Shown: one piece after another, positions 3,124 through 64,000 of the stretch | How positions within the stretch are numbered: position 1 is the first letter of the stretch | Layout of the letters: each line of letters starts with the position of its first letter | From: Eledone cirrhosa | Lineage: Eukaryota | Assembly (NCBI GenBank): GCA_964016885.1 | Contig: OZ024764.1 | Coordinates: 9,672,001-9,736,000, forward strand | Direction: 5' to 3' | DNA: 64,000 bases | The notes under the pieces: generated by a model | The model's input: the letters and a program-made list of their open reading frames with translations, nothing else | Told to the model about the DNA's origin: nothing | Database searches by the model: none | Program-made: the position numbers and the translations under genes

Positions 3124-3713
3124 ATATATTACAATATATTATAATATATATAATATAGATACAGCCAAATAATGTCTGTAAGTTGTGTCAGGTGAGAGAT
3201 TGAAACCGCCAGGAACTGGTTTGTCTCTTGTGGCGCGTGGAAGGTCAGGTTTCTATAGCAACAGTGGTTCCCTTGGTTTTACCAAAGTATGCGAGGGGGG
3301 GGGGTTAATATTTTTGACACAATTGGTTTCTCTCTTTTTCTCGGTTTCTGATTAAAGCATTATATATTGTATATTGTAATATATATTATATATATTATTT
3401 AAATATATATTGTATATTGTATATTGTAATATATATTATATATATTATTTAAATATATATTATATATTGTATATTGTAATATATATTATTTAAATATATA
3501 TTGTATATTGTAATATATATTATTTAAATATATATTGTATATTGTAATATATATTATATATATTATTTAAATATATATTATATATTGTATATTGTAATAT
3601 ATATTATTTAAATATATATTGTATATTGTAATATATATTATATATATTATTTAAATATATATTGTATATTGAAAGGGTATGTCAATATTTATTTATAAAA
3701 CTGGTATATATTG

Positions 3714-3778
3714 TATTTTGTCTGATGAAAGCACACCATAATTTAACATGGTATCCTTGAAATATGTATAATAAAATA
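3714..3778 (+). ncRNA. Minimal type I hammerhead ribozyme motif (family 1)
   Basis: TATTTTGT-CTGATGA-AAG..CTT-GAAA-TATGTA-TA-ATAAAATA. Confidence 0.72.
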
Positions 3779-3905
3779 GATATGGTTTTATAAATATAGT
3801 TTCCATTTGTTAATATCGTAAATTTACTCCAAATACTTGTCAAGTGCTTTATATCAGTTAAAAAAATATTTGCTTGTTGTATCCCAACAATTTAAATAGA
3901 ACTTT

Positions 3906-8810: not shown

Positions 8811-10866
8811 TTACAAGGACCTTAGTCTTTGTCATGTTGACTTTGAAACCCTTTCTTTCTAGTCCCTGCTTCCAAGTTTGGAATTTCTTCTCTAGTTCTA
8901 CCATAGATTCAGCTATAAGTGCGAGGTCATCAGCATACAGGAGTTCCCATGGGTATCCGGTCTTAAACTCCTCCGTTATTGCCTGCAGGACTATGATGAA
9001 CAGGAGAGGGCTAAGAACAGAGCCCTGGTGGACCCCAACCTGTACGCTAAATTCCTCGCTATACTCATTGCTAATCCTAACTTTGCTGACTGCTCCCCTA
9101 TACATGGCTTGTACAGCTTTCACAAGCCATTCATCTACTCCTAATTTTCTAAGAGCCCACCAGATTACAGCACGTGGAACTCTGTCAAAGGCTTTCTCGA
9201 AATCGACGAATGCCAGGTAGAGTGGTTTACTTTTAGCTAGGTACTTTTCCTGTAACTGCCTCACAAGGAAGAGGGCATCAGTGGTGCCTCTTCCTGGTAC
9301 AAACCCAAATTTCATCTCATCTAGTTTCACCCGGTCCCTAATCAACTGTGCTATAAGTCTTTCTGTTACTTTCTCAGCACTTGTGAGGGCAAGCTCACCT
9401 TTATCATTCCGGATACACTTCTCTCCAATGACATCACAATTCTCTCTGACACACTGCCTCGCAATCTTAAACACCTCCTGTTTCTGGTCCTCACGTTGCA
9501 AAACATGCTTGAATTTTCTATCCTCTGCTTCCTTCCTAACTAAGTATACTTGCGCCTAGCTTCCCTCTTGGTCTCTATGTAATGTACCCTGCTCCCCCCC
9601 GTTCTTCCATTCTTTCCATGCTTGTCTCTTGGCCTTAACTGCCTCATCTACCTTATTGTTCCACCACCAAGTCACTCTCCTCCTGCTTGTGGTCTTACTC
9701 CAGCCACAGACCTCATCCGTCGCCTCTAGTAAGTTATTTTTTAGGAACTCCCAGTGCTCTTCTACATTGAATGTCACTATCTGTTCTTCTTTACTGTCGT
9801 AGGCATTGAGTAAAATATCTTTAAATCTGTTACTGGCTGAGGGGTCTTTCAGCTTCCAGATCTTTCTTCTCCAGGTTGGCCTCTGTTTCCAGGTTCGTCT
9901 AGTTCTGACTGTGAGGTCGCTGACAACTAAGCTATGTTGGGAGGTACATTCCTCACTAGGGAAGGCTTTTGTGTTTACAACCGTCCATCTGTCACGTCCT
10001 CTGATGAGGATAAAATCTATCTGACTAGAATGCTCCCCTGATCTATAGGTGATCAGGTGGTTGTCGGGTTTTTTGAAGTTTGTGTTACATATCGACAGGT
10101 CATTGGCGTCGCAGAATTCTAGAAGTCTGAATCCTTCTTCATTTCTTGTGCCAACCCCATGGCCTCCATGGACTCTATTGAAGCTGTCACAGTGTTTACC
10201 TACGTGTCCGTGAAAATCTCCTGCGATGATTAAGAAGTCATTGTCGTTTGATAGAGCAGTAGTGTGCATTAGGGACTCGTAAAATCTATCCTTAAGTTTG
10301 TCTGGCAACCCCGATTGGGGTGCGTAAGCTGATATTATTGTGGTAATTGTTTTATTCAGGACTAGTCTGAGTTTAATGATTCTTGCATTTACCCTGTACA
10401 CTGAGATTACTTTATCTACCCACATGGCTTAGTGGTTAGAGCATTGGCCTTGCAATCGAAAGGTTGTGAGTTCAATTCTCAGACCGGGTGATGTGTTGTT
10501 TCCTTGAGCAAGACACTTTATTTCACATTGCTCCAGTTTACTCAGCTGTAGAAATGAGATGATAGGGACTGGGGTTCCTATCATTCCACTGCAAAGTGGT
10601 CGTGGAGGTGCCACGGCAAAAAAGCACCCAGCACTCACTGTAAATGAGGTTGGTGTTAGGAAGGGCATCCAGCTGTAGAAATCAAGCCAGAATCGGTTCC
10701 CGTCCCACCCTTGCAAGCAGGGAAAAAGCAGACGTAAAATGAAATGATGATGATGATGATGAATGACCCACTTGTCAGCTAGTAGTATACCTACACCACC
10801 CATCCCATCGTCATTTCCCACCCAGAAAAATTTGTAGCACCGACTTTTTCCTACAAGGACTCTAGC
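8811..10866 (-). mobile_element. RTE-clade LINE internal fragment (APE endonuclease + reverse transcriptase), frameshifted and internally deleted
   Basis: EN motifs GVGILL, SAYAPQ, IAGDFHGHVG, SSQIDFIL (ORF 9556-10425); RT motifs FVDFEKAFD, GVHQGSVLSP, LYADD (ORF 8758-9501). Confidence 0.92.
10421..10765 (+). mobile_element. tRNA-derived SINE family B inserted in the LINE endonuclease region
   Basis: A box TGGCTTAGTGG, B box GAGTTCAATTC, (GAT)n tail; duplication ACCCAC at 10418-10423 and 10766-10771 splits LINE peptide ADKWV/DKVIS. Confidence 0.88.
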
Positions 10867-14273: not shown

Positions 14274-16065
14274 CTATTAAATAGAACAAAAATAAATATA
14301 ATATATATATATATATATAGCTTAGAAATACTTACACCCACATAGACAGATGTGTATATATATATATGTATGTATGTATGTATATATGTCATCATCATCA
14401 TTTTACGTCCACTTTTCCCTGCTTGCAAGGGTAGGACGGGTCTTATTCAGCACAGCATCTCTCCACTTGTCACGGTCCTTTGTCATCTCCCCCGTGAGCT
14501 TCAGCGATCTGAGGTCAGCTCTCACCACCTCCGCCCATGTTTTTCGTGGGGTCTACCTCTACTGCGTCTTCCTTCAACTGGAATTTCTTGGCACTTCTTT
14601 ACCCATCAGTCATCTTCCATGCGTATCACATGTCCATACCATCTCAGTCTTCTCTCCCACACACCACAACCTATCCCTCTTATACACAGTTTCTCTCTCA
14701 ACACATCACATGTCCATACCATCTCAGTCTTCTCTCCCGCACACTACAACTTATCCCTCTTATACACAGTTTCTCTCTCAACACATCACATGTCCATACC
14801 ATCTCAGTCTTCTCTCCCGCACACCACAACTTATCCCTCTTATACACAGCTTCTCTTTCAACACATCACATGTCCATACCATCTCAGTCTTCTCTCCCGC
14901 ACACCACAACTTATCCCTCTTATACCCAGTTTCTCTCTCAACACATCACATGTCCATACCATCTCAGTCTTCCCTCCCACACACTACAACTTATCCCTCT
15001 TATACACAATTTCTCTCTCAACACATCACATGTCCATACCATCTCAGTCTTCTCTCCCACACACCACAACTTATCCCTCTTATACACAGTTTCTCTCTCA
15101 ACACACCACATGTCCATACCATCTCAGTCTTCCCTCCCGCACACTACAACTTATCCCTCTTATACACAGTTTCTCTCTCAACACATCACATGTCCATACC
15201 ATCTCACTCTTCTCTCCCTCATACCACAACTTATCCCTCTTATACCCAGTTTCTCTCTCAACACATCACATGTCCATACCATCTCAGTCTTCTCTCCCGC
15301 ACACTACATCCTATCCCTCTTATACACAGTTTCTCTCTCAACTCGCCTATGCTTGGTCATTCACACACATTGACATTGCACATCCAACGGAGCATGCTTG
15401 CTTCATTTCTCTCCAGCCGTCGCATATCCTCCACAACTGCTGCCCATGTCACACTACCATGCAGCATCGCGCATCTCACACAGGCATCATATAACCGGCC
15501 TTTCGTACGCAGGGAGACGGGTTAGACGGGAATTGTCCCACTTGAGGCAAGATTGGTCGGGTGACTTTGTCTTGCTCATATAGGACTATATATGATTGTG
15601 TATGTATATAAATATGATACAGATATGTATGTGCCAGTGAGTATAAATATATATATATACAGTACAGATGTGTATGTGTGTGTATAAATATATATATATG
15701 ATATATCATCATCATCATCATCATCATCACCGTTTTACGTCCGTTCTTCCACGCTAGCATGGGTTAGACGGGTTGTCCTGTTGTGGGCAGTGTCTGGTCG
15801 GCTGACCATGCCTTGCTCATACAGGAACTGATTTGGCTTGATTTCTACAGCTGGATGCCCTTCCTAACACCAACCTCATTTACAGTGAGTGCTGGGTGCT
15901 TTTTCGTGGCGCCTCCACGTCCACTTTACAGTGTGGGCTGGGTGCTTTTTTGTCGTGGCACCTCCACGACCACCTTGCAGTGGGGGGTGTGGGGGCATAT
16001 TGTCTATATGCTTCAGCTTGTACCCATGGGAGGTCGGGTACCCTGTATTACTGCGTGACGCCAGG

Positions 16066-19100: not shown

Positions 19101-21128
19101 AATGACCCTGACCACCAAGGCAAGTGCCCTCTCCCAGTTTTCTACCTTTAATTTACAGATATATGCTCAGAGTAGGCCCATTCACTCGGGCCATACTTGC
19201 CTCTCTCACCCATCTTTCAACAAAATGCTGGGAAGAGAGCACCTCCCTCTCTACCCTGATTTTCCTTTTCAAATGAAATTTGAAAAAGTCAATCAGGGCA
19301 TCACCGAAGAGGTAAGTGCTCGTCTTCAGCCCTTTCAAACGTGTCCACCATACTATCTCTTTCACCATGGCCACCAGGCAGATAAAAACTGCCTGCCCTT
19401 CCCGGCTAAAGGAGGAGGGCGGGGCAATCCTCACGATGGACTCAGCTGATAGTCGGATCCGTTCTACACGCGACAGCAGGTGTTCGACATAAACCCACAA
19501 GTCAGCAATGCTCGGACACTGGACGAGTGCGTGCAGGACGGTTTCGTCGCCCTGCGCACATCTCGGACATGCCCGGCTGACGGCACCTCCATGCCTGTAG
19601 AGTTTATCCCGAACTGGCAAAGCTGCTCGGTAGCACTGCCAGGCCAGAGATTTCTGGAAGTTGTCCATAGGCCCTGGCCCGAAAGTTCTTCCGAAGAGAT
19701 TGGCTAGTTGATTTTCGTCGACGCCTAGAGTTTCCCCAAGTATGTCGTCGCTCTTCCCCTCCACTAATCCTCTATAGAACGCCGAGGTGGAGTTTCCACC
19801 GATCACATTGCCCGATTGGTCGAGGGCTGTGAGCGCCTGAAGACATTCCAGTCTCCAGGCGCTCCCTCTCGGTCTTCGCTTGACCCAGGACTGCAGCTCC
19901 GTCAAGGAAACGAGCTGGGGAAAAACGCGTCTAGCAAACGGCGACCACACCTGATCACCGTCGAGGAAGAGGTGGAGATGTCGTAGCCTGAGCGCGTGCC
20001 TGCGCATCATCAGCCACGGCATGCCCAGCCCTCCACGTAGCGGGTGTTGACAACAGATGGACCGCCTGACCATCGGAGCACGTCCCTTCCACAAAAAGCG
20101 AAAGAGCAAACGCTCCAGCGCAGTCAGGCGAGGCTTAGGACAAGGTACGACGGTCAGGCGGTAGCAGATGACAGACGCGATGTACGCGTTAGCCACCTCC
20201 GCTCGACCTTTCAGGGATAGCTTCCTCTCCACCCATTTCTGGGTGAGAGAAGCCACCCTGCTCGTCACCTCGTCCCAGTTTTTGTCCGTCTGGAGGTCCA
20301 GACCGAACCAGACCCCTAACCGATTCTGCTAATAATAATAATAATTGTTTCTACTTTTGACACAAGGGGCCAGAAATTACCCAGTGTATTACTGGTACTT
20401 TATTTTGGCACAAGGGGCCAACAATTACCCCAGTGCATTACTGGTACTTTATTTTATCGACCCCGTAAGGATGAAAGGCAAAGTTAACCTCGGCTGGATT
20501 TGAACTCAGACCGTAAAGGGCCATAACTCTATACTGCAAAGCTTGGCGTCTGACTTTCTACCGATTCTGCTAATAATAATAATAATTGTTTCTACTTTTG
20601 GCACAAGGGGCCAGCAATTACCCCAGTGCATTACTGGTACTTTATTTTGGCACAAGGGGCCAGCAATTACCCCAGTGCATTACTGGTACTTTATTTTGGC
20701 ACAAGGGGCCAGCAATTACCCCAGTGCATTACTGGTACTTTATTTTGGCACAAGGGGCCAGCAATTACCCCAGTGCATTACTGGTACTTTATTTTGGCAC
20801 AAGGGGCCAGCAATTACCCCAGTGTATTACTGGTACTTTATTTTATCGACCCCGTAAGGATGAAAGGCAAAGTTAACCTCGGCGGGATTCGAACTCAGAA
20901 TAATAATAATAATAATAATGTCACTCACCAGCTCCTTTCTTGCCCCTTTATCCATATAATAGGCGTACGGGTAGGTGTACTGCAAAGTGTACCGACACTG
21001 TAACAACAACAACAACAACAGTATTAGAGTATGTAACTATCCAGAGAAGAGATTCATCATCATCATCATCATCATTTAAGGTTCATCTTCCACGCTAGCA
21101 TGGGTTGGACAGGTTTGTCCCATTTAGA

Positions 21129-21646: not shown

Positions 21647-24600
21647 ATATATCTACATGTGTATATATATGTATATATGTATGTGTCTATATGTACATGT
21701 GTGTGTACACATATATATATATAAATGTGTGTGTGCGTACATATGTATATATGTACATATGTATATACAAGTATGTATGTACAGATATATATGTATGTTG
21801 TTTTTCAGCGTAACTAGTAACATATAACCCCGAGACACTTGTCAACAGTTTCAGGTAGTTATAAAGGTGTTAACAAGATACCTTCTTCAACAGAGCTGCA
21901 GCATCAAGCAGATATTGCCAATCTATCCAAGTTCCAGAGTTGTTCATCACTTTATCTTGAATTCTACTTTTGATGCTGGTTAGGGTCTGCTCTTCCAATT
22001 TCAAGCTTTTCGCGTGGTTATCCCACTGTGGCAGAGACATGAGAGAACGGACACAGATATATAGATACCATATAAATATAGATTTAGCAAGCATCGCATT
22101 TCGGCGGGTAGAAAAGGCGAAACGAAACGCAAAAATCAGAAATAATTGTTTCTACTTTAGGCACAAGGCCAGCAATTACCCAGTACATTACTGGTACTTT
22201 ATTTTATCGACCCTGTAAGGATGAAAGGCAAAGTTAACCTCGGCGGGATTTGAACTCAGAATGTAAAGGGACGTAACTATGCTAGAAAGCATGGCGTCCC
22301 ACCCTCTACCGATACTGCCAATTCACAGAAATAATTGTTTCTACTTTTGGCACAAGGTCAGGAATGATCCCAGTGTATTACTGGTACTTTATTTCATCGA
22401 CCCCCGTAAGGATGAAAGGCAAAGTTAACCTCGGCAGGATTTGAACTCAGACCATAAAGGGCCGTAACTCTTTGCTGCAAAGCAAGGCGTCCGACTCTCT
22501 ACTGATTCAGCCTTAACCGATTCTGCTAATTCACAGAAATAATGATGGCAAGCGCTCCATAGTTAAAAAACCAGAGCTAAACAATATGTTAAGAGGCCAT
22601 ACAAAACTGAAATAGTGGTCAAGAAAGCATCAACCACCTAAGCCAAAAATCAAATCAAGCTAAACAGGTCAAAACAAAATAAATGATAAAAAAAAATGAT
22701 GAAAAAAAAAAAATCAATGATAAAAAAGGCCATATCACGCTGTAAACACTGGTTCTCGTCCGATCACCAAAGTTAAGCAACGTCAAGCCTAGTTAGTACT
22801 TAGATGGGTGACCGCTTGGGAACCCTAGGTGCCGTAAGCATTTACTGATATATACCATATATATAACCAGAGTTTATATGGTTCGTTGATTATTCAACGA
22901 ATACAACTTTACAATAGATTAGAAGCATTCGACAGAAAGTTTTCTGGAGTATCTATAATGTTATTCAAAATATTAATAAATGAAAAATATTCTCATAATC
23001 AAAATATATATTTTATTATACATATTTCAAAGGTACTATGGTGTTTAAGTACGTTTTCATCAGACAAAATATGAGAGATTGAATATGCAACATACCGCTA
23101 CGGTTTTGATTATTCAATTCCAATAGTGGTAGTATTGGAATTGAATAATCAAAACCATAATGGTGTGTCGTATATCCAATCTCTCGTATATTTTGTCTGA
23201 TGAAAACATACTTAATCACCGTACTTATACACTGTACTTAAAAAGGTTTCAAAAGAAATGTGCCATTGTGCCAGGCCCAAGGCAGGCCGGCAGGCCAAAG
23301 TGCAAATCTCACCGTTACATATTGTTTGTGGCGTTCCTTCGGAGTTCAAGCAGCAAGAGAGAGATTTCTCAAATCAAAGTGGGAATTTTTCCCTCAGGGC
23401 GCGTAGAGATACATTCTCTTCTACTGGCACTGATTGGCTGAGCTGAGCCAAATCACGCACAGAGAATGTATGTAAGCCCGCGGAATGTAGGTCACTACAC
23501 TCATATATTTTGTCTGATGAAAACGTACTGAAACACCATTGTATAAAACACCATTTGTATAAAATCAATATATATATATACAGAGAGACTATATATATAT
23601 ATATACACACACACTGCATGTGTGCGTATATATATATATATATATATAAAGAAAACAGGAAACAGAAAAAAGGGGTAGATAGGAAAGTTGTTGCTGTATA
23701 AGAGATGTTTAAGAGTTAAAATATATCTGAGAACAAGGAAAACCAACTGACCCTTTCAAAGTAGAAGAGGTATTTCTTAAGGGCTTCCCTTGCCTGTGCA
23801 TGGGCAGATTCATTAGCGATATTAGGGTTTTCTTTATAGCGACTGCATTCATAATATTCACTACCATGGGTTTTCCAATCTGTAACAGAAAAATGGGATT
23901 AACTTGGAACATAATTAAATTTAGGGGTCACATTTATGTACGTTTTTGGGGGGTCGTAATGATAGGGACCCTTACAAGGTTGTCTGCGAAAATACAATAG
24001 TATATATAGAGTAATGTAAATGTTATGTGAGGTAAAGCCTTTACTGTGAAAATACAATAGTATATATAGAGTAATGTAAATGTAATGTGAGATATTATGT
24101 GAGGTAAAGCCTTTACTGTGACAATACAATAGTATATATAGAGTAATGTAAATGTTATGTGAGATATTATGTGAGGTAAAGCCTTTACTGTGAAAATACA
24201 ATAGTATATATAGAGTAATGTAAATGTTATGTGAGATATTATGTGTGGTAAAGCCTTTACTGTGCCAATACAATAGTATATATAGAGTAATGTAAATGTT
24301 ATGTGAGATATTATGTGAGGTAAAGCCTTTACTGTGACAATACAATAGTATATATAGAGTAATGTAAATGTTATGTGAGATATTATGTGAGGTAAAGCCT
24401 TTACTGTGAAAATACAATAGTATATATAGAGTAATGTAAATGTTATGTGAGATATTATGTGAGGTAAAGCCTTTACTGTGAAAATACAATAGTATATATA
24501 GAGTAATGTAAATGCTATGTGAGATATTATGTGAGGTAAAGCCTTTACTGTGAAAATACAATAGTATATATAGAGTAATGTAAATGTTATGTGAGATATT

Positions 24601-27600
24601 ATGTGAGGTAAAGCCTTTACTGTGAAAATACAATAGTATATATAGAGTAATGTAAATGTTATGTGAGATATTATGTGAGGTAAAGCCTTTACTGTGAAAA
24701 TACAATAGTATATATAGAGTAATGTAAATGTTATGTGAGATATTATGTGAGGTAAAGCCTTTACTGTGAAAATACAATAGTATATATAGAGTAATGTAAA
24801 TATTATGTGAGATATTATGTGAGGTAAAGCCTTTACTGTGAAAATACAATAGTATATATAGAGTAATGTAAATATTAAAGGTTTAATGATAGGGACCCCA
24901 GTCCTATCATGTTGTCACAGCTCACACCTATGTAGGTTTAGCTGGACTCCGACAAGGTTGTATCTCATAAGAGGTTTCTTGGGTGTTTTAATGATAGGGG
25001 ACCCCAGTCCTATCATGTTATTACTGCTCACACCTGGGGAGGGGGGAAAGTCGATTAAATTGACGCCAGTGCATTACTGGTACTTTATTTTATCGATCCC
25101 GTAAGGATGAAAGGCACGATTGACCTCGGTGGGAATTGAATTCAGAACCTAAAAGGACCTAACTCTATGTCCGATGCTCTACCAATTTAGCTAATCCACT
25201 GCCCTAATAAGAATAATGATAATAATAATATTGAACTTACCTCCTAAACACATCCAGCAAAAATCATGCTTGCATCGTGAACATTGCTGTAGATAAAGAA
25301 TTAGATATATATATATATATATATATGTGGTTTTTTTTGGTTGTAACTTCTCTGTTTTTTAGCCTAGGAAAATATTTATATATATGCCTACGTATATAAT
25401 TACATGCATATATGTATTTATTTTCTTTTATTAATTGAGTTCTTTACACGAGGAATTAATATTGGTTTTGAAATAACTAATTAACCCGCGTGTGTTTTAA
25501 ATTTTACTCTTAATAATTCGGCCGGAGAATTATATTCCCATTTGCCCTTTATAGCATAACTTTCTGCATTTACTGCGGTTATGAGAAGCGGTTCTTATTC
25601 GGGTACAACTTCTGATTTAGCCTAAGAAAGTATCTAGATGCGTGTGTAATTTATACAAGCATATATTTATTTTTTTTATTTTCAATTGAGTTCTTAAACA
25701 CGTTGGATTGATAATGTTTTCAAAAAAACTAATTAACCCGCGTGTATATTATTTTTTTTCCTCATTTCGTGGGTTGTCTCCCCTTCCCGCTTCATGTCGC
25801 TATGATACTTCCTCAGTCAAAAACTGCTGGAATTTCAAATTTGGCGGTCATTCGAGGTGAGAGAGAGCATCTTTACGGATATGATTTTTGACAGCGGTAA
25901 GAAATTGTTTTCTTATATCAATGTTTAATGGGCTTCCACTGATGATTTATAAGTGCCCACCTAAATATATTCTTACATGAATATATATTAGGCTTCTACA
26001 TAAACTGGAAACATTCTCCTAAATTTGTAGAAAACTTATAATGAAACAATTGTTTGGAAAGAGAGATATACTTTAACTTTAATTATATCTCATAAAATAA
26101 TACAACTGGTTTTTCCACATTATTCATATTGTTAGCACCCCAAACACTTAAATTGGGTTTATATTTTAATATAACCTAATGTTTGTTGAGTGAGATGGTT
26201 ACCAGTCAGAGTTTAGCTTTAAACTATCTCTGTTATTGTATTAATTATATATATATATATATATATATAAAAAGCAAAAGAGAAAGGAAAAAACAGTCCA
26301 CGCTGTAATGTGGCTGTGTAGGTAACAAGGTAAAAAGCTCCCAGTTCCACACTGTAAATGTGGTTGGTGTTAGGCAGGGCATCAAACTGTAGAAAACTTG
26401 CCATATACTCCCATATGAGCAAGACACGGTCACCCGACCAACCTTGCCTCAAGTGGGACAACTCCCGTCTAACCCATGCTAGCGTGGAAGATAGACGTTA
26501 AACTATGATGATGATGATGATGATGATACATGTCAGTATTTAAACCCAGGTAAGTGATAATGAGTGACGTAGTGTTCATTTATCAAATAATGTTAGTTAA
26601 GACAGGATTAAATCACCATAATTTTTTACTGCATTATATATATTTACAGTGATGGAAGCCTTGGAGTGGGGAGACCCAAAAAGACCTGGGATGAGGTGAT
26701 AAAAGTCGACCTTACCCAAGTGCACCTCTCAAAGGCGATAATGCAGGACTGTGACCTGTGGCGTCACGCAGTAATACAGTAGACCCGACCCCCCCCCCAC
26801 AAGTACAAGCCAAAGCTGAAGCATATAGACAATATGCCCCCACCCCCTCCCACTGCAAAGTGGTTGTGGAGGTGCCACGACAAAAAAGCACCCAGCCCAC
26901 ACTGTAAAGTGGTCGTGGCGGTGCCACGGCAAAAAAGCACCCAGCACTCACTGTAAATGAGGTTGGTGTTAGGAAGAGCATCCAGCTGTAGAAATCAAGC
27001 CAGAATTCCCGGATGAGCAAGACAAAGTCAGCCGACTTGACACTACTCACAACAGGACAACCCGTCTAACCCATGCTAGCGTGGAATTCTATTATAACGA
27101 AATTCACGGGGTATTATAAAAATTTGTTGGAACGAATCATTCTTTATAACGAGATCGACGTAACACATCAAGCATGAGGCTAGGGATTTTAAAAAATTTC
27201 GTTATAACGAAATTTTACCTGTATACACACACGCACACATCATCATCATCATACATCTGCTTTTCCCTGCTTGCAAGGGTGGCACGGGTCTTATTCAGCA
27301 CAGCACCTCTCCACTTGTCACGGTCCTTCGTCATCTCCTGTGAGCTTCATCGATCTGAGGTCAGCTCTCACCACCTCCGCCCATGATTTTCGTGGTCTTC
27401 CTCTACTGCATCTTCCTTCCACTGGGATTTCTTGGCACTTCTTCACCCAGCGGTCATCTTCCATGCGCATCACATGTCCATACCAACGCAGTCTTGTCTC
27501 CCACACACTACAGTTTATCCCTCTTATACACAGTTTCTCTCTCAACACATCACATGTCCATACCAACGCAGTCTTCTCTCCCACACACTACAGTTTATCC

Positions 27601-28619
27601 CTCTTATACACAGTTTCTCTCTCAACACATCACATGTCCATACCATCGCAGTCTTCTCTCCCACACACTACAGTTTATCCCTCTTATACACAGTTTCTCT
27701 CTCAACACATCACATGTCCATACCAACGCAGTCTTCTCTCCCACACACTACAGTTTATCCCTCTTATACAGTTTCTCTCTCAGCTCATCCATGCTTGGTT
27801 GTTAACGCACATTCACATTGCACATATATATGTATGTGTGTAAACCCTAATACGTACCATATGATTACATCCACCATTTTTCTCTATACAAACATGACAT
27901 CTTGGACACTGAAAAGAAAAGAAAAGAAAATATAGAAAAACTGAAATATATAAAAATAATAATCTTTTTTTTTTATTATTATTATTATTTAGATACTTTG
28001 AATTGTTCTCCTACAAAAGACTGCCTTGCTGGTCACTGTATATATATACCCAGGAAGAAAGTACTGTCTGGTTACGGTCCTTGTTGAGACTGGACAGGAC
28101 TGTAGAAAGTTCCGGTAAGCATAATTGTTTCTACTTTTGGCACAAGGCCAGCAATTACCCCAGTGCATTACTGGTACTTCATTTTATCGACCCCGTAAGG
28201 ATGAAAGGCAAAGTTAACCTCGACGGGATTTGAACTCAGAATGGCAAGGGCCGTAACTCTATACGTCAAAGCATGGCAACCGACCCTCTACCGATACTGC
28301 CAATCTACCGTTCCGGTAAATATAATATTTACTGCATAAATTTTTGATAACAACAACAACAATAATAATAATAATAATACTGATAATGGTTTCTTATATA
28401 GTCTTATATCTTTAGTGTATGTGTAAGAGAGAAAGAGAAATACAGAGATAGAGAGATTATATCCTAAACGGACGGTAGTCCGTTTAGTAATATTGTTGTG
28501 GTCGTGTTTTCGTTGGCAATCGTCTGTTTACGACAGTACAGCGCGGCTCTACTTTATTTAACTGAGATAAAACTTATATGAGCATGAACAGTAGATCATT
28601 ACGCATCTTTTGGCTTAAA

Positions 28620-33017: not shown

Positions 33018-35862
33018 AAATATAAAACAATCAAATTTTAGCTTAATACATTTAATTGCTGATGATCGTTTCTCCCAGACAACTCTCTGGAATCATCGGA
33101 GAATACACAATGTTTAAACAAGTAATTATAATCGTAGTCTTCGGAATATTCATAAAGATATATTTATATTTTGTATTTCAGCTCTGTAAGACATATGATA
33201 ATTTACATTGAGCTTTTTCTCTTACTGGTAATTGGGTAGTGCTTAATACTACCCTTTCATATTTATAATTATATATAACTCATATACAAGCATAAATATT
33301 ATTATTATATATATATATTATTGAGTAAAATGACAGGAGGTTGGACTGGTGAAATTCCTTCAAAGATTTATTACAAACACTATGCACATTTCAATGATCA
33401 GGTTCCATAAGATCCTGGTGACATCATCAGGTGTTTATTGCATAAAAGTTATATAATAAAGGAATAATGGTAAACATAATCCAAGAGGCTTTATATATTT
33501 CGGAAAAGAGTCAGGACCCCAACAGCTGAGCTCCGGCCGTTCTTGTTATTTATATATATATGTCAATGTGCGTGAACGACCAAGCATAGATGAGTTGAGA
33601 GAGAAACTGGGTATAAGAGGGATAAGTTGTGGTGTGCAGGAGAGAAGACTGAGATGGTGTGGACATGTGATGGAGGAGAGGATGACTGCTGGGTGAAGAA
33701 GTGCCAAGAAATCCCAGTAGAAGGAAGACACAATAGTGAAGACCACGAAAAACATGGACGGAGGCGGTGAGAGCAGACCCCAGATCACTGAAGCTCACGG
33801 AGGAGATGACGAAGGACCGTGACAAGTGGAGAGATGCTGTGCTGAATAGGACCCGTCACACCCTTGCAAGCAGGGAAAAGCAGACGTATGATGATGATGA
33901 TATAGCTTATCACTTCTTGATGGTACTAGGAAGTTCGGAGCTTACCAAAAAGAAGTTTTACATTTGGAACAGTCCACTTAAAAAAAAAAGGGGTGGTGGT
34001 ATCTGCAGTGTGAGGGAACTAGAGATAAAATATATTCAAAAGGCAAAAAAAAAAAAACCGAAGTTCGGAGCTTACCAAAAAGAAGTTTTACATTTGGAAC
34101 AGTCCACTTAAAAAAAAAAGGGGTGGTGGTATCTGCAGTGTGAGGGAACTAGAGATAAAATATATTCAAAAGGCAAAAAAAAAAAAACCGAAGTTCGGAG
34201 CTTACCAAAAGGAAGTTTTACATTTGGAACAGTCCACTTAAAAAAAAAAGGGGTGGTGGTATCTGCAGTGTGAGGGAACTAGAGATAAAATATATTCAAA
34301 AGGCAAAAAAAAAAAAAACCGAAGTTCGGAGCTTCCCAAAAAGAAGTTTTACATTTGGAACAGTCCACTTAAAAAAAAAAGGGGTGGTGGTATCTGCAGT
34401 GTGAGGGAACTAGAGATAAAATATATTCAAAAGGCAAAAAAAAAAAAACCGAAGTTCGGAGCTTACCAAAAGGAAGTTTTACATTTGGAACAGTCCACTT
34501 AAAAAAAAAAGGGGTGGTGGTATCTGCACTGTGAGGGAACTAGAGATAAAATATATTCAAAAGGCAAAAAAAAAAAAACCGAAGTTCGGAGCTTACCAAA
34601 AAGAAGTTTTACATTTGGAACAGTCCACTTAAAAAAAAAAGGGGTGGTGGTATCTGCAGTGTGAGGGAACTAGAGATAAAATATATTCAAAAGGCAAAAA
34701 AAAAGAAAACCGAAGTTCGGAGCTTACCAAAAAGAAGTTTTACATTTGGAACAGTCCACTTTCTTGGCTTGGGGTTGTGGTGCTCTGACTATTACCGGAC
34801 AGTTTGGACCAGGACAAAACCGTAATTGAGGATGGGTCTACAAATAGAAAATATAAACATTTATATATATATATATATATATATATACACCCCAACTCAC
34901 TACCCCTACTCCACCCTCCCACTCCCACCAACACCACCCTTTCTCTATCATCATCATCATCATTCGTTGACTACTGTCGAGATGATGGATCTCAACCTCA
35001 TGCCCCAGAATTCCCTGTCCCCCATCGCTGCCCCCAGGTCCTGTCTACTGATTCCCGTATCCCTAGAGATAACTGTTTCTACTTTAGGCACAAGGCCAGC
35101 AATTACCCAGTGCATTACTGGTACTTTATTTTATCGACCCCGTAAGGATGAAAGGCAAAGTCAACCTCGGCGGGATTTGAACTCAGATCGTAAAGGGACG
35201 TAACTATGCTGGAAAGCATGGCGTCCGACCCTCTACCGATACTGCCAATCCACCGCCCTTCCCTCTATCACCGTATCCCTAGAGATAACGTCAGGGAATG
35301 ACAGCTTCCTACTCCTAGTCAGGCTGGAGTCAGGGTTCCAGAGCAAGAGAGCGGATATGATTTCATTGCTGGCACGGTGACAGTCCTCATAACGCCTCTC
35401 CTGAGGATGAGGTAAGAGAATTCTACACGACCCTTCGCACAGTTGTTGAGCAAGTACCCTTACACAACTTTCTTATCATCGCTGGAGACCTCAACGCTCA
35501 ACTTGGCCCGGATGAAGTAAGGTTCACATACAATAGGGTTACTAACAACAGCTCAACAGCTCAAACAACAACTTCATGAAGACCAGAGGCCAGCTTTGGA
35601 GCCTTTCTCTATAAAGTTATGTTGGTACCACAACATCCAGTCCAAACTAATGAGGTCGTGTAGGTGTCACGACAAAAAAAGCTCCCAGTCCACACTGTAA
35701 ATGTGTGGTTGGTGTTAGGAAGGGTATCCAGCCGTAGAAAACCTGCCAGACAGTCCTATACGAGCGAGACACGGTCACCCGACCAATCTTGCCTCAAGTG
35801 GGACAATTCCCGTCTAACCCATGCTAGCGTGGAAGATAGACGTTAAACGATGATGATGATGA

Positions 35863-35898
<36 letters not shown>

Positions 35899-38800
35899 TA
35901 AGGCGGGTAAAATTCCCGAGATCCATGGACGAGTTCTCTCCAGTTGTCTCTGTCCCTCATTATCGCTGCCATGTCCTGCGTCGCCAACAGACCAGTGTCT
36001 GTCCTTAGGGCATCAACATACGTTAACCTTGGTCTTCCTCTTCTATATAATAATTGGAGGAATGCAGGACTGTGTCTTGAATATATTTTTTTCTGAACAC
36101 ATTAAAATAAGTTGGATTACTTTGAATAAATAATTGTTTCTACTTTAGGCACAAGGCCAGCAATTATCCAGTGCATTACTGGTACTTTATTTTACCGACC
36201 CCGTAAGGATGAAAGGCAAAGTGAACCTCGGCGGGATTTGAACTCAGATCGTAAAGGGACGTAACTATGCTGGAAAGCATGGCGTCCGACTCTCTACTGA
36301 TACTGCCAATCCACCGCCCTAATAATAAGTCTGCATGCCGAAACCCGGGAATGAACAGGGGACCTTTAGATCTTCAGTCTAACGCTCTCCCAACTGAGCT
36401 ATTTCGGCTGTACATTACTTTGAATAAATAATGAATGAATATTACATAATTTATCTACTAAATTTCGTAGCTGTTGATTAAACAAATATTTTTATATATA
36501 ATCTATTTTAAGATTCACTTCTTTAAAATTTTCAAATGTCAATACTTCCAGTTAGCGTCCGTTATATCATAATACTTATCACATCACTTATATCAACATT
36601 CATATATTTGTATCGTTATATAAGGTTTATATTTCCGTCACTAATTTTCTCCTTTTTCGTTTTCATTACATTTCACCGTAATGCAGTTTAAATATAATGT
36701 GAAGGCACATGGCTTAGTGGTTAGAGCTTAGTGGCTTGCAATCGAAAGGTTGTGAGTTCAATTCTCAGACCGGGTGATGTGTTGTTTCCTTGAGCAAGAT
36801 ACTTTACTTCACATTGCTCCAGTTTACTCAGCTGTAGAAATGAGATGATAGGGACTGGGGTCCCTATCATTCCACTGCAAAGTGGTTGTGGAGGTGCCAC
36901 GGCAAAAAAGCACCCAGCACTCACTGTAAATGAGGTTGGTGTTAGGAAGGGCATCCAACTGTAGAAATCAAGCCAGAATCAGTTCCCGTATGAGCAAGAC
37001 AAGGTCAGCCGACCAGACACTGCCCACAACAGGACAACCCGTCTAACCCATGCTAGCGTGGAAGAAAGGACGTAGAACGGTGATGATATAATATTGTCTT
37101 TGTTAAATGTATCATGGATTATTTTACTGATTACAGAAGACAGTGTAACACAGTCTCTCTTCAATTTCTGTGCATATTGTCAACTATGATTCTATTTGAC
37201 ATATCATATCTCCATATATTTGCATATAATGGAGGCACATGGCTTAGTGGTTAGAGCATTGGCCTTGCAATCGAAAGGTTGTGAGTTCAATTCTCAGACC
37301 GGGTGATGTGTTGTTTCCTTGAGCAAGACACTTTATTTCACATTGCTCCAGTTTACTCAGCTGTAGAAATGAGATGATAGGGACTGGGGTCCCTATCATT
37401 CCACTGTAAAGTGGTCGTGGAGGTGCCACGGCAAAAAAGCACCCAGCACTCACTGTAAATGAGGTTGGAGTTAGGAAGGGCATCCAGCTGTAGAAATCAA
37501 GCCAGAATCAGTTCCCGTCCCACCCTTGCAAGCAGGGAAAAAGCGGACGTAAAATGAAATGATGATGATGATGATGATGATAATATCAATATCCACACTA
37601 CACATGCTAGCAGGAAACCACACGAAGGGTGGTTTTTTTTCTGCTAGCAACAAATAATTGTTTCTACTTTTGGCACACACACGGCCAGCAATTACCCCAG
37701 TGCATTACTGGTACTTTATTTTATCGACCCCGTAAGGATGAAAGGCAAAGTTAAACTACCATAATTGTTTATTGCATTATATATATTTCTGTGACATTTT
37801 AGCTAGTATGCTCGGACACTTACCTTGACATGGTCCATAAATGTAAGTCTCATGTATCGGTCTCGAATGTCTGGTTGGCTGAGTACCTCACAGATGATAT
37901 TCTCCGGCACAAGGACATTACACTCCGCTGCCATGCACTGGATTCCTGGTGGCGGTGGCGGTGGTGTCGATGGTAGTGGTGGTGGTGGTGGTGGTGGTGG
38001 TGATGGTGGTGGTGGTGGTGGTAGTGGTGAAGAAGAAGACATTATTAGAGACAGAGAGAGAGAGATGGAGTAACAGAGTTGATAGAGGGAAGGAGGGAGG
38101 GAGGGAGAAAGAAGGAAGGAAGGAAGGAAGGAAGGAAGGAAAAAGAAAGAAAGAAATAGAGGAAGGAAAGGAAGAAAAGAAAGTGAGTAAAAAGACAACA
38201 AAAAAGGTGAGCACATACTTGTGGTTACTCCTTGGTAGATTTGTACTTGGAAATATCTATCCCACAATATTATTAGAGACAGAGAGAGAGATGGAGTAAC
38301 AGAGTTGATAGAGGGAAGGAGGGAGGGAGGGAGGGAGAAGGAAGGAAGGAAAAAGAAAGAAAGAAGGAAGGAAGGAAAAAGAAAGAAAGAAAGTGAGTAA
38401 AAAGACAACAAAAAAGGTGAGCACATACTTGTGGTTACTCCTTGGTAGATTTGTACTTGGAAATATCTATCCCACAATATTATTAGAGACAGAGAGAGAG
38501 ATGGAGTAACAGAGTTGATAGAGGGAAGGAGGGAGGGAGAAAGAAGGAAGGAAGGAAAAAGAAAGAAAGGAAGGAAGGAAAAAGAAAGAAGGAAGGAAAA
38601 AGAAAGAAAGAAGGAAGGAAGGAAGGAAAAAGAAAGAAAGAAATAGAGGAAGGAAAGGAAGAAAAGAAAGTGAGTAAAAAGACAACAAAAAAGGTGAGCA
38701 CATACTTGTGGTTACTCCTTGGTAGATTTGTACTTGGAAATATCTATCCCACAATATTATTAGAGACAGAGAGAGAGATGGAGTAACAGAGTTGATAGAG

Positions 38801-41800
38801 GGAAGGAGGGAGGGAGGGGGAAGGAAGGAAAAAGAAAGAAAGAAGGAAGGAAGGAAAAAGAAAGAAAGAAAGTGAGTAAAAAGACAACAAAAAAGGTGAG
38901 CACATACTTGTGGTTACTCCTTGGTAGATTTGTACTTGGAAATATCTATCCCACAATATTATTAGAGACAGAGAGAGAGATGGAGTAACAGAGTTGATAG
39001 AGGGAAGGAGGGAGGGAGGGAGGGAGAAGGAAGGAAGGAAGGAAAAAGAAAGAAAGAAATAGAGGAAGGAAAGGAAGAAAAGAAAGTGAGTAAAAAGACA
39101 ACAAAAAAGGTGAGCACATACTTGTGGTTACTCCTTGGTAGATTTGTACTTGGAAATATCTATCCCACAATATTATTAGAGACAGAGAGAGAGATGGAGT
39201 AACAGAGTTGATAGAGGGAGGGAGGGAGGGAGAAGGAAGGAAGGAAGGAAAAAGAAAGAAAGAAATAGAGGAAGGAAAGGAAGAAAAGAAAGTGAGTAAA
39301 AAGACAACAAAAAAGGTGAGCACATACTTGTGGTTACTCCTTGGTAGATTTGTACTTGGAAATATCTATCCCACAATATTATTAGAGACAGAGAGAGAGA
39401 TGGAGTAACAGAGTTGATAGAGGGAGGGAGGGAGGGAGAAGGAAGGAAGGAAGGAAGGAAGGAAGGAAAAAGAAAGAAAGAAATAGAGGAAGGAAAGGAA
39501 GAAAAGAAAGTGAGTAAAAAGACAACAAAAAAGGTGAGCACATACTTGTGGTTACTCCTTGGTAGATTTGTACTTGGAAATATCTATCCCACAATATTGA
39601 CAGAGAGAGAGATGGAGTAACAGAGTTGATAGAGGGAGGGAGGGAGGGAGAAAGAAGGAAGGAAGGAAAAAGAAAGAAAGAAGGAAGGAAGGAAGGAAAA
39701 AGAAAGAAAGAAATAGAGGAAGGAAAGGAAGAAAAGAAAGTGAGTAAAAAGACAACAAAAAAGGTGAGCACATACTTGTGGTTACTCCTTGGTAGATTTG
39801 TACTTGGAAATATCTATCCCACAATATTATTAGAGACAGAGAGAGAGATGGAGTAACAGAGTTGATAGAGGGAGGGAGGGAGGGAGGGAGGGAGAAGGAA
39901 GGAAGGAAGGAAAAAGAAAGAAAGAAATAGAGGAAGGAAAGGAAGAAAAGAAAGTGAGTAAAAAGACAACAAAAAAGGTGAGCACATACTTGTGGTTACT
40001 CCTTGGTAGATTTGTACTTGGAAATATCTATCCCACAATATTGACAGAGAGAGAGATGGAGTAACAGAGTTGATAGAGGGAGGGAGGGAGGGAGAAAGAA
40101 GGAAGGAAGGAAAAAGAAAGAAAGAAGGAAGGAAGGAAGGAAAAAGAAAGAAAGAAATAGAGGAAGGAAAGGAAGAAAAGAAAGTGAGTAAAAAGACAAC
40201 AAAAAAGGTGAGCACATACTTGTGGTTACTCCTTGGTAGATTTGTACTTGGAAATATCTATCCCACAATATTGACAGAGAGAGAGATGGAGTAACAGAGT
40301 TGATAGAGGGAGGGAGGGAGGGAGAAAGAAGGAAGGAAGGAAAAAGAAAGAAAGAAGGAAGGAAGGAAGGAAAAAGAAAGAAAGAAATAGAGGAAGGAAA
40401 GGAAGAAAAGAAAGTGAGTAAAAAGACAACAAAAAAGGTGAGCACATACTTGTGGTTACTCCTTGGTAGATTTGTATTTGGAAATATCTATCCCACAATA
40501 TTATTAGAGACAGAGAGAGAGATGGAGTAACAGAGTTGATAGAGGGAGGGAGGGAGGGAGGGAGGGAGAAGGAAGGAAGGAAGGAAAAAGAAAGAAAGAA
40601 ATAGAGGAAGGAAAGGAAGAAAAGAAAGTGAGTAAAAAGACAACAAAAAAGGTGAGCACATACTTGTGGTTACTCCTTGGTAGATTTGTACTTGGAAATA
40701 TCTATCCCAGCATTCCTTGCAGAAGAGATGTCCACAGGTGAGACATTCCATCCTGTCTCTGGCATACCAGACGGTACAGACAGTACAGACTAGACTGCTA
40801 GCCCCAGGGTCCTGGAATTAGAGAGGGGGTAGGGGTTAGGTGAGGTGACAAGACAGTACAGACTAGACTGCTAGCCCCAGGGTCCTGGAATTAGAGAGGG
40901 GGTAGGGGTTAGGTGAGGTGACAAGACAGTACAGACTAGACTGCTAGCCCCAGGGTCCTGGAATTAGAGAGGGGGTAGGGGTTAGGTGAGGTGACAAGAC
41001 AGTACAGACTAGACTGCTAGCCCCAGGGTCCTGGAATTAGAGAGGGGGTAGGGGTTAGGTGAGGTGACAAGACAGTACAGACTAGGTTGTTAGCCCCAGG
41101 GTCCTGGAATTAGAGAGGGGGTAGGGGTTAGGTGAGGTGACAAGACAGTACAGACTAGGTTGTTAGCCCCAGGGTCCTGGAATTAGAGAGGGGGTAGGGG
41201 TTAGGTGAGGTGACAAGACAGTACAGACTAGACTGCTAGCCCCAGGGTCCTGGAATTAGAGAGAGGGCAGGAGTTAGGTGAGGTGACAAGACAGTACAGA
41301 CTAGGCTGCTAGCCCCAGGGTCCTGGAATTAGAGAGAGGGGGTAGGGATTAGCTGAGGTCAGAGGTTCTCAAACTTTTGGGGCCACTGCTCCCCTCACGG
41401 CCACATAATACCCTCAGTACCCACCAACCCTATTTCCAGACACAGCAATACAGAAGACCCGACTTCCCACGGGTTTCAAGCTGAAGCTGAAGCATATAGA
41501 CAATATGCCCCCACACCCTCCCACTGCAAAGTGGACGTGTAGGTGCCCCAGAAAAAAAGCACCCAGCCCTCACTGTAAATGAGGTTGGTGTTAGGAAGGG
41601 CATCCAGCTGTAGAAATCAAGCCAGAATCAGTTCCCGTATGATCAAGACAAGGTCAGCTGACTGGACACTGCCCACAACAGGACAACTCGTCTAACCCAT
41701 GCTAGCGTGCAAGAACGGACGTAAAACGGTGATGATGATGATGAAATATATATATATATATATATATTTCATCATCCTCATCACTGTTTTACGTCCTTTC

Positions 41801-42648
41801 CTTTTTTTATAGATATATAAATATATATTTATATATCTATAAAAAAAGGAAAGGAAAAAAAAGGGGGGAAAAGTCCACGCTGTAATGTGGCCATGTAGGT
41901 AACATGGTAAACGGCTCCCAGCCCACACTGTAAACGTGGTTGCTGTTAGGAAGGGCATCCAGCTGTAGAAAACCTGCCAGATACAGTCCTATACGAGCGG
42001 GACACGGTCACCCGACCAATGTTACCTCAAGTGGGACAATTCCTGCCTAACCCATGCTAGCGTGGAAGATAGACGTTAAATGATGATGATGATGGTGATG
42101 ATGATGATGATGAGAGAGAGAAAGAGAGAGACCTACCTGAAACTTCACTGAAGGCATAATATTGGACTCCACCAGTAATCCTGCAGGGTTTTCATTGTGC
42201 CTGGGGAGGAAAGAAAGAAAAATATTATCATCATCATCATCACACTACCAGACGGGGGTGGATTAGCAGAATTGGTACTATACTACACAGTATATATATA
42301 TATATATATATATATTGTTATACTTAGGGAGGGTCATGTTGCCAATAAGAAACACACGCACCAGTTGCTTTCACTTCAATTTATTATAATAAATTTATAA
42401 TAAATTTATAAATTTCTGGTTGGTTGGTTGGTTCCACAACCAGATAGTTGTTTATATATTGTCATAGTTCTTTCGTCACACACTCTGTGACCTCTTCAGT
42501 GACTGGGGATTCCTTTCTTTGTTTCTGTGCCTCTCCTTTGTTCTGTCCTACGCCATTTTGTTGGCAACATGACCCTCCCTAAGTATAACAATATCGGTTT
42601 CAACACACGATTTCAGATAAAGAATCTTGCTAAACAAATTCAGAAACG

Positions 42649-42692
<44 letters not shown>

Positions 42693-44329
42693 GATATATT
42701 AACAAATGGAAACTATATTTATAAAACCATATTTATTTCATTATACATATTTCAAGGACACCAAGTTAAATTATGGTGTGCTTTCATCAGATAAAATATA
42801 ATATAGAGCAGTTTTATAAATAAATATTGACATACCCTTAAAGAATGCGACTATGTCAATATTTATTTATAAAACTGCTCTATATTATATTTTATCTGAT
42901 GAAAGCACACCATAATTTAACTTGGTGTCCTTGAAATATGTATAATGAAATAAATATGGTTTTATAAATATAATTTCCAATTGTTAATATATCGTATTTT
43001 TACTCCAATAATTTGTTGAGTGCTTTATATCAGTTATAAAAATATTTGCTTATTGTATCCCAACAATTTAAATAGAACTTCTACATATATATATATTTTT
43101 TTTTTTTAGTATATGTTGGTTGTATACCAACATGATTCCAGTTCCTCAGTGAAATAACAACCCAACCAGGAACTGGGCATATCAGAGTATTGACAAAGTT
43201 ATACACCTCAACAACATGTGTACTCGTCTATACCACACTAATTCGGACTGCCTGAAGAGGTCACAGCCAAAGATGGCTGTCACCGAAAAATATATATAGC
43301 AGTAATAAACGAAGCCAAATTTTAAACATTTGACTTATTTATTTTATATATATATATATATATACAGTTCCTGTATGAGCAAGGCATGGTCAGCCGACCA
43401 GACACTGCCCACAACAGGACAACCCGTCTAACCCATGCTAGCGTGGAAGAACGGACGTAAAACGGTGATGATGATGATGATGATATATATATATATATAT
43501 AAACACACAGTCCACGCTGTAATGTGGCCGTGTAGGTAACACGGTAAAAAGTTCCCAGTTCCACACTGTAAATGTGGTTGGTGTTAGGAAGGGCATCCGG
43601 CTGTAAAAAGCCTGCCAGGAACAGTTCTATATGAGCGAGACACGGTCACCCAACCAATCTTGCTTCAAATGGAACAAAACCATCTAACCCATGCTAGCGT
43701 TGTAGATAGACATTAAACGATGATGATGATTATATATATATATATATATATAAAAAGAAGGCAAGAGAGGGAAAAATAAAAGGAAGGAAAAAAACACTGT
43801 AAAGTGGTTGTGTAGGTAACATGGTGAAAAGCTCCCAGACCACACTGTAAATGTGGTTGGTGTGAGGAAGGGCATCCAGCTGTAGAAAACCAGTTCTATA
43901 TGAGCGAGACATGGTCACCCGACCAATCTTGCCTCAAGTGGAATAAAACCATGCTAGCGTGGATCATAGACTGATGATGATATATATATATATATCATCA
44001 TCATTTCATTTTATGTCCGCTTTTCCCTGCTTGCAAAGGTGGGACGGGAACTGATTCTGGCTTGATTTCTACAGCTGGATGCCCTTCCTAACACCAACCT
44101 CATTTACAGTGTGGGCTGGGTCCTTTTTTGCCATGGCACCTCCACGACCACGTTGCAGTGGAATGATAGGGACTCCAGTCCCTATCATCTCATTTCTACA
44201 GCTGAGTAAACTGGAGCAATGTGAAATAAAGTGTCTTGCTCAAGGAAACAACACATCACCCGGTCTGAGAATTGAACTCACAACCTTTCGATTGCAAGGC
44301 CAATGCTCTAACCTTTAAGCCATGTGCCT

Positions 44330-52879: not shown

Positions 52880-53827
52880 ATGGAGAGAAATGAAGCAAGC
52901 ATGCTCCGTTAGATGTGCAATGTTAATGTGCGTGAACGACCAAGCATGGATGAGTTGAGAGAGGAACTGTGTATAAGAGGGATAAGTTCTGGTGTGCAGG
53001 AGAGAAGACTGAGATGGTATGGACATGTGATGTGTTGAGAGAGAAACTGTGTATAAGAGGGATAAACTGTAGTGTGTGGGAGAGAAGACTGCGTTGGTAT
53101 GGACATGTGATGTGTTGAGAGAGAAACTGTGTATAAGAGGGATAAGTTCTGGTGTGTGGGAGAGAAGACTGAGATGGTATGGACATGTGATGTGTTGAGA
53201 GAGAAACTGTGTATAAGAGGGATAGGTTGCGGTGTGTGGGAGAGAAGACTGAGATGGTATGGACATGTGATGTGTTGAGAGAGAAACTGTGTATAAGAGG
53301 GATAGGTTGCGGTGTGTGGGAGAGAAGACTGAGATGGTATGGACATGTGATGTGTTGAGAGAGAAACTGTGTATAAGAGGGATAGGTTGCGGTGTGTGGG
53401 AGAGAAGACTGAGATGGTATGGACATGTGATGTGTTGAGAGAGAAACTGTGTATAAGAGGGATAGGTTGTGGTGTGTGGGAGAGAAGACTGAGATGGTAT
53501 GGACATGTGATGTGTTGAGAGAGAAACTGTGTATAAGAGGGATAGGTTGCGGTGTGTGGGAGAGAAGACTGAGATGGTATGGACATGTGATGTGTTGAGA
53601 GAGAAACTGTGTATAAGAGGGATAGGTTGCGGTGTGTGGGAGAGAAGACTGAGATGGTATGGACATGTGATGTGTTGAGAGAGAAACTGTGTATAAGAGG
53701 GATAGGTTGCGGTGTGTGGGAGAGAAGACTGAGATGGTATGGACATGTGATGCACATGGAGGATGACCGCTGGGTAAAGAAGTGCCAAGAAATCCCAGTG
53801 GAAGGAAAACGAAGTAGAGGAAGACCA
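52880..53827 (+). mobile_element. RTE LINE fragment with 80-bp array (about 10 copies)
   Basis: Reverse complement of the unit at 14625-15341; [26 protein letters not shown]. Confidence 0.88.
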
Positions 53828-63276: not shown

Positions 63277-63690
63277 TAACCCTTTAGCATTCACATTACT
63301 CTATATATACTATTGTATTTTCACAGTAAAGGCTTTACCTCACATAATATCTCACATAACATTTACATTACTCTATATATACTATTGTATTTTCACAGTA
63401 AAGGCTTTACCTCACATAATATCTCACATAACATTTACATTACTCTATATATACTATTGTATTTTCACAGTAAAGGCTTTACCTCACATAATATCTCGCA
63501 TAACATTTACATTACTCTATATATACTATTGTATTTTCACAGTAAAGGTTTTACCTCACATAATATCTCACATAACATTTACATTACTCTATATATACTA
63601 TTGTATTGTCACAGTAAAGGCTTTACCTCCCATAATATCTCACATAACATTTACATTACTCTATATATACTATTGTATTGTCACAGTAAA
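63277..63690 (+). repeat. 72-bp array (5-6 copies) beginning with TTAACCCTTTAGCATT (piggyBac-like terminus)
   Basis: Reverse complement of the 23987-24886 array; TTAA followed by CCCTTT at the left end. Confidence 0.85.
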
Positions 63691-64000
63691 GCATAAGGCA
63701 TTTGTTAACTAGATCAGACACCATGATATGCGGCTAACCCTTTGCCCTATTATATATATATAATACAAGGCTTTTGTCACAGAGGGAGAGTTTACAAGAC
63801 CAGGCATCATGAAAAGGGGCTAACCCCTTGCCCTATAAAAAAAGATTATATATATATATATATATAAGACCCGGGTTTAATCGGGGGGTAACACAGTTAG
63901 TAAGGTACTCAATACATTAGTAGAGTGTAAAAATCAAGTTTAATATAGAAATGGCTTCTACAGGACTAGAACTGTTTCATTCAAAGGAAATCATCAGGAA

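Follow-up and report, generated by a model that had tools for sequence, protein, structure and literature searches.

A splice-junction minisatellite in intron 4 of the ARIH2 gene of the octopus Eledone cirrhosa

Introduction

What becomes of splicing when the end of an exon, together with its splice donor, has been copied again and again into the intron that follows? The question is raised by the ARIH2 (ariadne-2) orthologue of the octopus Eledone cirrhosa, which lies within the 64,000-nucleotide (nt) stretch of DNA analysed here and referred to throughout as the window (assembly GCA_964016885.1, contig OZ024764.1, positions 9,672,001 to 9,736,000 of the forward strand; coordinates below are counted from its first letter). 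A first-pass annotation of the sequence had recognised an array of exon-end copies in intron 4 of this gene and had proposed that it acts either as a set of decoy donors or as a nascent array of micro-exon cassettes within a zinc-binding domain. Our findings place the array in the class of splice-junction minisatellites, also described as ‘mirages’ or as F7-type variable number tandem repeats (VNTRs). The spliced contigs seen use the first donor only, and the array is likely to be neutral and to have come about through local tandem amplification; to this reading as a whole we assign a probability of roughly three in four.

The exon 4 boundary is repeated through intron 4

14202 to 51971, minus strand: orthologue of ARIH2 (ariadne-2, an RBR E3 ubiquitin ligase), 14 coding exons, 483 amino acids, one stop
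40664 to 40811, minus strand: coding exon 4, 148 nt, N-terminal part of RING1
38041 to 40709, minus strand: donor array of 12 units, each of 202-277 nt
37946 to 38040, minus strand: unduplicated tail of intron 4, CCA/CAC-rich (~90 nt), with no AG ahead of the true acceptor
37824 to 37945, minus strand: coding exon 5, remainder of RING1

The predicted protein possesses the full RING1-IBR-Rcat-Ariadne chain and has ARIH2 as its best match, on which basis the gene is assigned to ARIH2. It is identical at 474 of 483 residues (98%) to a protein named Octopus vulgaris ariadne-2-like, and a protein search with exon 7 returned human ARIH2 with an E value of 1e-18 and ARIH1 with an E value of 1e-9. A protein search in which coding exon 4 was the sole query gave no match.

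Each unit of the donor array consists of the last 46 exonic nt of exon 4, a GTATGT donor and a CT-rich intron start. The units are arranged head to tail, the terminal one spanning the real boundary between exon 4 and its intron, and together they present 12 identical donors on the minus strand (CAA/GTATGT, the slash marking the end of the exon). One of these is the real donor, with the G of its GT at 40663; the 11 copies lie at 40449, 40219, 39989, 39775, 39545, 39327, 39121, 38907, 38705, 38428 and 38218. A single substitution is found across the 11 x 46 nt of copied exon end, a level of identity far beyond chance, and the GTATGT donor is intact in every extra copy (11/11). Differences between units reside mostly in the length of the CT microsatellite and in a few shared insertions or deletions, the non-microsatellite parts all being near-identical. 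Intron 4 measures 2,718 nt, of which the array contributes 2,445 nt (90%), leaving a collapsed length of 273 nt. The earlier description of eleven copies of the 3′ end of the RING1 exon, each with an intact donor and together occupying almost the whole of a 2.7-kb intron, is thus borne out; its estimate of ~45 repeated exonic nt was correct in substance, the exact figure being 46.

Spliced contigs join the innermost sites

42137 to 42200, minus strand: coding exon 3, the upstream partner of exon 4
40778 to 41359, minus strand: acceptor array of exon 4, 8 copies of a 73-nt unit, the real acceptor being the last, innermost copy (exon start at 40811)

Four of 23 listed sequencing runs were compared with positions 40600-40850, which comprise exon 4 and one copy of the flank on either side. 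No run on record as RNA was among those listed, which speaks neither for nor against transcription. Run X2 bears the same species label and derives from another sample; its contigs are spliced, from which we take it to be RNA, the run having no record as such. X1 may be the assembly’s own sample, X6 comes from a relative and X10 from another species. Contigs of this kind drop rare forms; they reveal which product predominates and do not show that others are lacking.

A 716-nt contig of X2 (depth 47.4) passes from exon 3 into exon 4 through the innermost acceptor, 40811, and spans exon 4 without differences; a second contig of 1,031 nt (depth 56.9) joins the end of exon 4 at 40664 straight to exon 5. 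The length of the latter fits 29 nt plus exons 5-14 (944 nt) plus 58 nt which, judged by length only, leaves no space for an interruption at exon 6. The X6 contigs reveal the same exon 3-4 and exon 4-5 joints at the innermost sites, and loose ends of both X2 and X6 contigs match exon 3. No go-back joint, be it to a 27- or 38-nt micro-exon or to an upstream acceptor, was found among the X2 or X6 contigs, which do not retain rare forms. The 40664-to-37945 junction given in the first-pass annotation is correct, as is its intron number when coding exons are counted. As far as the main product is concerned, only the innermost joints through exons 3, 4 and 5 are seen.

Eight acceptors and twelve donors give 96 possible pairs for exon 4, and the full frame is kept by the innermost pair alone (1/96); use of upstream acceptors leads to a stop at residue 149 and use of downstream donors to a stop at residue 228. 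Products with a premature stop would be depleted by nonsense-mediated decay (NMD).

A rival reading is that the donor array is an assembly artefact, or that its copy number has been inflated. The units are rich in microsatellite, and the contigs compared over 40600-40850 did not include the unit junction of the donor array; the X1 contigs are without cover at 40663-40770, a gap that is uninformative given that the filter omits records. Conversely, diagnostic variants shared between units follow a pattern along the array, which a real VNTR would be expected to show: a 5-nt deletion occurs in units 1, 2 and 4, another deletion is shared by units 8 and 10, and a further variant is restricted to units 7-11. 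Moreover, the neighbouring acceptor array is present in the read-derived data of X1 (possibly, as stated, the assembly’s own sample), where three contigs carry its unit junction as loose ends and two carry a variant unit. A short X2 contig (32 nt, depth 9) runs from the end of exon 4 into the GTA of the donor and ends exactly where the substitution in unit 1 leaves a 31-letter word. This hints at array copies in the X2 sample, but the main contig is unbroken where such copies should merge, and the hint is suggestive only. We consider an artefact to be improbable.

One contig of X10 runs without a break through exon 4 and its two flanks, with 21 differences in 173 nt, and has a pyrimidine-rich intron start. 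Because of this, the pyrimidine-rich spacer would appear to be ancestral and the arrays look lineage-specific. As a separate observation, a cuttlefish ARIH2 gene model (protein P0130) continues from the end of exon 4 into a peptide resembling a translated CT repeat, hinting that a CT-rich start of intron 4 may be found in decapods too.

Acceptors within the units

For the copies to serve as exons, each would need an acceptor of its own. It had been claimed that every unit offers internal AGs downstream of a CT tract and a CTAAT motif. GATAG is indeed present in all 11 copies; CCAAG occurs in 10 of 11, having been lost in the first copy, CTAAT precedes only 8 of 11, and the long CT tract is situated upstream of CTAAT and not between CTAAT and the AG. 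The predicted lengths and frames hold: use of GATAG gives a 38-nt pseudo-exon with a frameshift and a premature stop, and use of CCAAG gives a 27-nt in-frame micro-exon (IQIYQGVTT). Versions of 12 and 9 nt are likewise in frame, and none of the three in-frame forms contains a stop.

The idea that these copies are nascent micro-exons, inserting residues into RING1, draws on those open frames and on the intact donors of all 11 copies. It fares poorly once the acceptors are considered. We built a crude acceptor model from the gene’s own acceptors and compared candidates with 1,523 ordinary intronic AGs. All 13 true acceptors of the gene read YAG and have 11-17 pyrimidines in 17 nt; those of the in-frame micro-exons (27, 12 and 9 nt) are AAG or GAG, and the candidates possess 7-9 pyrimidines. 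In this model the 38-nt acceptor is equalled or exceeded by 44% of ordinary intronic AGs and the 27-nt acceptor by 75%, the range for the three in-frame forms being 63-75%. By the same crude measure, a credible acceptor for a micro-exon or poison-exon cassette, combining YAG with an adjacent pyrimidine tract, was not found. Protein evidence points the same way: the spacing of RING1 at the site of insertion is exactly 15 residues in all 60 pattern-matched homologues (16 of the 76 examined being unmatched), and no inserted isoform occurs among these 60. The 9-residue insert would presumably lie after the sixth and before the seventh of the RING1 zinc-ligand cysteines. With the AG of the 27-nt form lost in the first copy and no go-back joint among the X2 contigs, the cassette interpretation is very improbable and we do not uphold it. 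The alternative label of a decoy-donor array is fair as a description of eleven identical, seemingly unused donors, though not as a statement of function.

Two further arrays and the minisatellite background

34728 to 34837, minus strand: coding exon 6, IBR
33930 to 34761, minus strand: donor array of exon 6, with a 130-nt unit and 7 copies of the exon end (1 real + 6)

The donor array of intron 4 does not stand alone. The acceptor array of exon 4 and the donor array of exon 6 were both overlooked in the first-pass annotation. Exon 4 is bracketed by an acceptor array (8 copies) and a donor array (12 donors), and a third array follows two exons later. The 73-nt acceptor unit comprises 39 nt of intron end, with a branch-point-like CTAAC and the CAG, and the first 34 nt of exon 4; all seven extra acceptors are intact. 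At exon 6, five of the six extra donors are intact and the remaining copy has GG in place of GT. This array also contains pseudo-acceptors that rank among the best 1% of intronic AGs, delimiting a 62-nt exon (CAG) and a 31-nt exon (AAG); all five pseudo-exon candidates of the array give stops. About 80 nt of each 130-nt unit is absent outside the array.

Across the window we counted 23 arrays with a unit of at least 30 nt, which cover 26% of the window, and several of their units recur elsewhere in it. Of the 13 arrays within the gene, 3 extend across a splice site, where 0.9-1.0 would be expected (P=0.05-0.07). Without the index array, which was the reason the window had been flagged, the value is P=0.21, and with the dispersed families left out as well it is P=0.13; the enrichment is not significant. 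General local amplification is enough to explain where the arrays lie, and an enrichment at splice sites is possible.

Junction repeats in other genes

Repeats of this class are already known from human and lancelet genes, and octopus ARIH2 is a new example. In intron 7 of human F7, the first unit of a 37-bp VNTR lies across the donor, and splicing uses the first donor alone; in LMNB2 and PDGF, similarly, only the authentic donor is used (PMC1557585). The octopus array resembles that of F7 in that the first unit lies across the exon-intron boundary, identical pseudo-donors follow and the most upstream donor is used. The two differ in the exonic share of the unit (4 nt in F7, 46 nt in octopus ARIH2) and in that each octopus unit nearly recreates a whole small intron with an exon end. 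Of the two, F7 is the one for which polymorphism and the competence of the pseudo-donors have been demonstrated.

In lancelet genes, among them globins, ‘mirages’ duplicate donor or acceptor boundaries in units of up to 160 nt and leave splicing undisturbed (PMC3087553, PMC3902484). Shared with the octopus are tandem units across one splice junction, on the donor or the acceptor side, in several copies and with normal splicing retained. The octopus donor units are longer (202-277 nt against up to 150-160 nt) and contain internal microsatellites; in this mollusc, donor and acceptor arrays bracket one exon, with a third array two exons later. Repeats at exon-intron boundaries have also been surveyed in human duplicated genes (PMC2812944). 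In the literature searched, coverage of which is incomplete and does not establish absence from print, we found no octopus precedent for junction arrays; nor, within the same incomplete coverage, did we find an exon bracketed by both array types. The excerpts available of a paper on Octopus vulgaris repeats (PMC13282606) held no relevant passage.

Origin, tolerance and possible leakage

We propose that the donor array would have begun with the duplication of the end of exon 4 together with ~170-230 nt of a 273-nt ancestral intron, leaving the last ~95 nt before the acceptor uncopied. At both inferred duplication breakpoints lies an imperfect AATG match. Expansion by slippage or by unequal exchange may then have followed, in a genome region that seems to amplify arbitrary stretches of 30-230 nt in like fashion. 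The array would be tolerated because splicing couples the acceptor and the donor that lie innermost (through exon definition and 5′-first choice of donor, as shown for human F7), because the array copies probably lack a good acceptor of their own, and because every other acceptor-donor pair would result in premature termination and removal by NMD.

The acceptor of exon 5 is itself unusual: it is preceded by CCA/CAC repeats in place of a pyrimidine tract, and a branch-point-like CTAAT lies ~99 nt upstream of it. Since the collapsed 273-nt intron is without an internal AG, this suggests that exon 5 may use a distant branch point.

Several observations weigh against neutrality or narrow its basis. 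The atypical, CCA-rich acceptor of exon 5 scores -4.1 in the crude model, compared with -6.2 for GATAG, and in each unit a long tract of pyrimidines follows a branch-point-like TACTCAC, the first AG being that of GATAG, a layout that may serve as a distant branch point. The 32-nt contig of X2 represents some unspliced or read-through sequence; it may be pre-mRNA, DNA pooled over 11-12 copies or read-through. Three junction arrays in one gene are at the high side of chance, and the X10 contig displays only 134 nt of downstream intron, less than one unit. The splicing evidence consists of contigs from one same-species spliced run, in which rare forms are dropped and products with premature termination codons would be depleted by NMD. 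Finally, CBS and IFI6 (6-16) use downstream pseudo-donors (PMC1557585) and the length of the ABCA7 VNTR alters splicing (PMC5954066). The 25-bp VNTR in intron 18 of ABCA7 is similar to the octopus array in that the repeat starts at and copies the donor, use of the next donor resulting in a frameshift and a premature stop; a length-dependent change of splicing has been demonstrated for ABCA7 only.

These observations bear upon a different view of the arrays, namely that they constitute a leaky sink tuned by copy number, in which a measurable share of transcripts splices at a donor further downstream or an acceptor further upstream, or takes in the 38-nt pseudo-exon, acquires a premature stop and is destroyed, so lowering the dose of ARIH2. 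Such a sink would be served by the premature stops of 95 of the 96 exon 4 pairs and of the 38-nt exon, by the weakness of the true exon 5 acceptor and by the better pseudo-acceptors of the exon 6 array; the depth-9 read-through contig and the precedents of ABCA7, CBS and IFI6 are consistent with it. None of the joints it predicts occurs among the X2 or X6 contigs, however, and the read-through contig is explained equally well by pre-mRNA or by DNA pooled over the copies. The pseudo-donors of F7 do not compete, and the octopus donors show no sign of being more conserved than other non-microsatellite parts of the near-identical units. We regard the leaky sink as unlikely. Nevertheless, the atypical exon 5 acceptor, along with the capacity of NMD to hide most aberrant products, leaves room for some low-level use of the copies, a point in favour of the first-pass annotation.

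A bolder proposition would be that octopod genomes amplify splice junctions often enough for array length to act as an inherited dial on NMD-coupled splicing of ARIH2, with mirage arrays a genome-wide source of variation in expression. We view this as a long shot; were array length to tune the NMD-coupled loss of ARIH2 mRNA, the ABCA7 VNTR would have an invertebrate counterpart in this locus. The arrays are also of value because they put exon definition to a natural test in a mollusc: of 8 acceptors, near-identical to one another, and 12 identical donors, a single pair, the innermost, yields protein. They counsel caution, too, when genes are annotated or short reads mapped in the introns of octopus.

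Additional observations

The final base of exon 4 (40664) is A, which specifies Arg170; Arg is found in all five named octopod proteins, while most homologues (42 of 64 rows) have Gly at the equivalent position. An A in this place also weakens the -1 position of the donor. Recoding by A-to-I editing was considered because most homologues have Gly here, and was ruled out by X2, which carries the genomic base, and by the five octopod proteins.

Elsewhere in the window, an 80-nt minisatellite unit occurs at 14625-15342, 27468-27782 and 52945-53752, and a 72-nt unit at 24023-24873 and 63288-63691. Because the 80-nt arrays adjoin reverse-transcriptase-like fragments, retroelements may be the source of some arrays or may carry them along. 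The minus-strand segments 8761-10428 and 19156-20328 hold what we take to be fragments of a LINE-like (long interspersed nuclear element) endonuclease/reverse transcriptase. An inverted repeat at 42689-42997, 146 nt in length and 99% complementary with a 17-nt spacer, has a similar stretch near 3700-3810 and looks like a miniature inverted-repeat transposable element or a foldback element.

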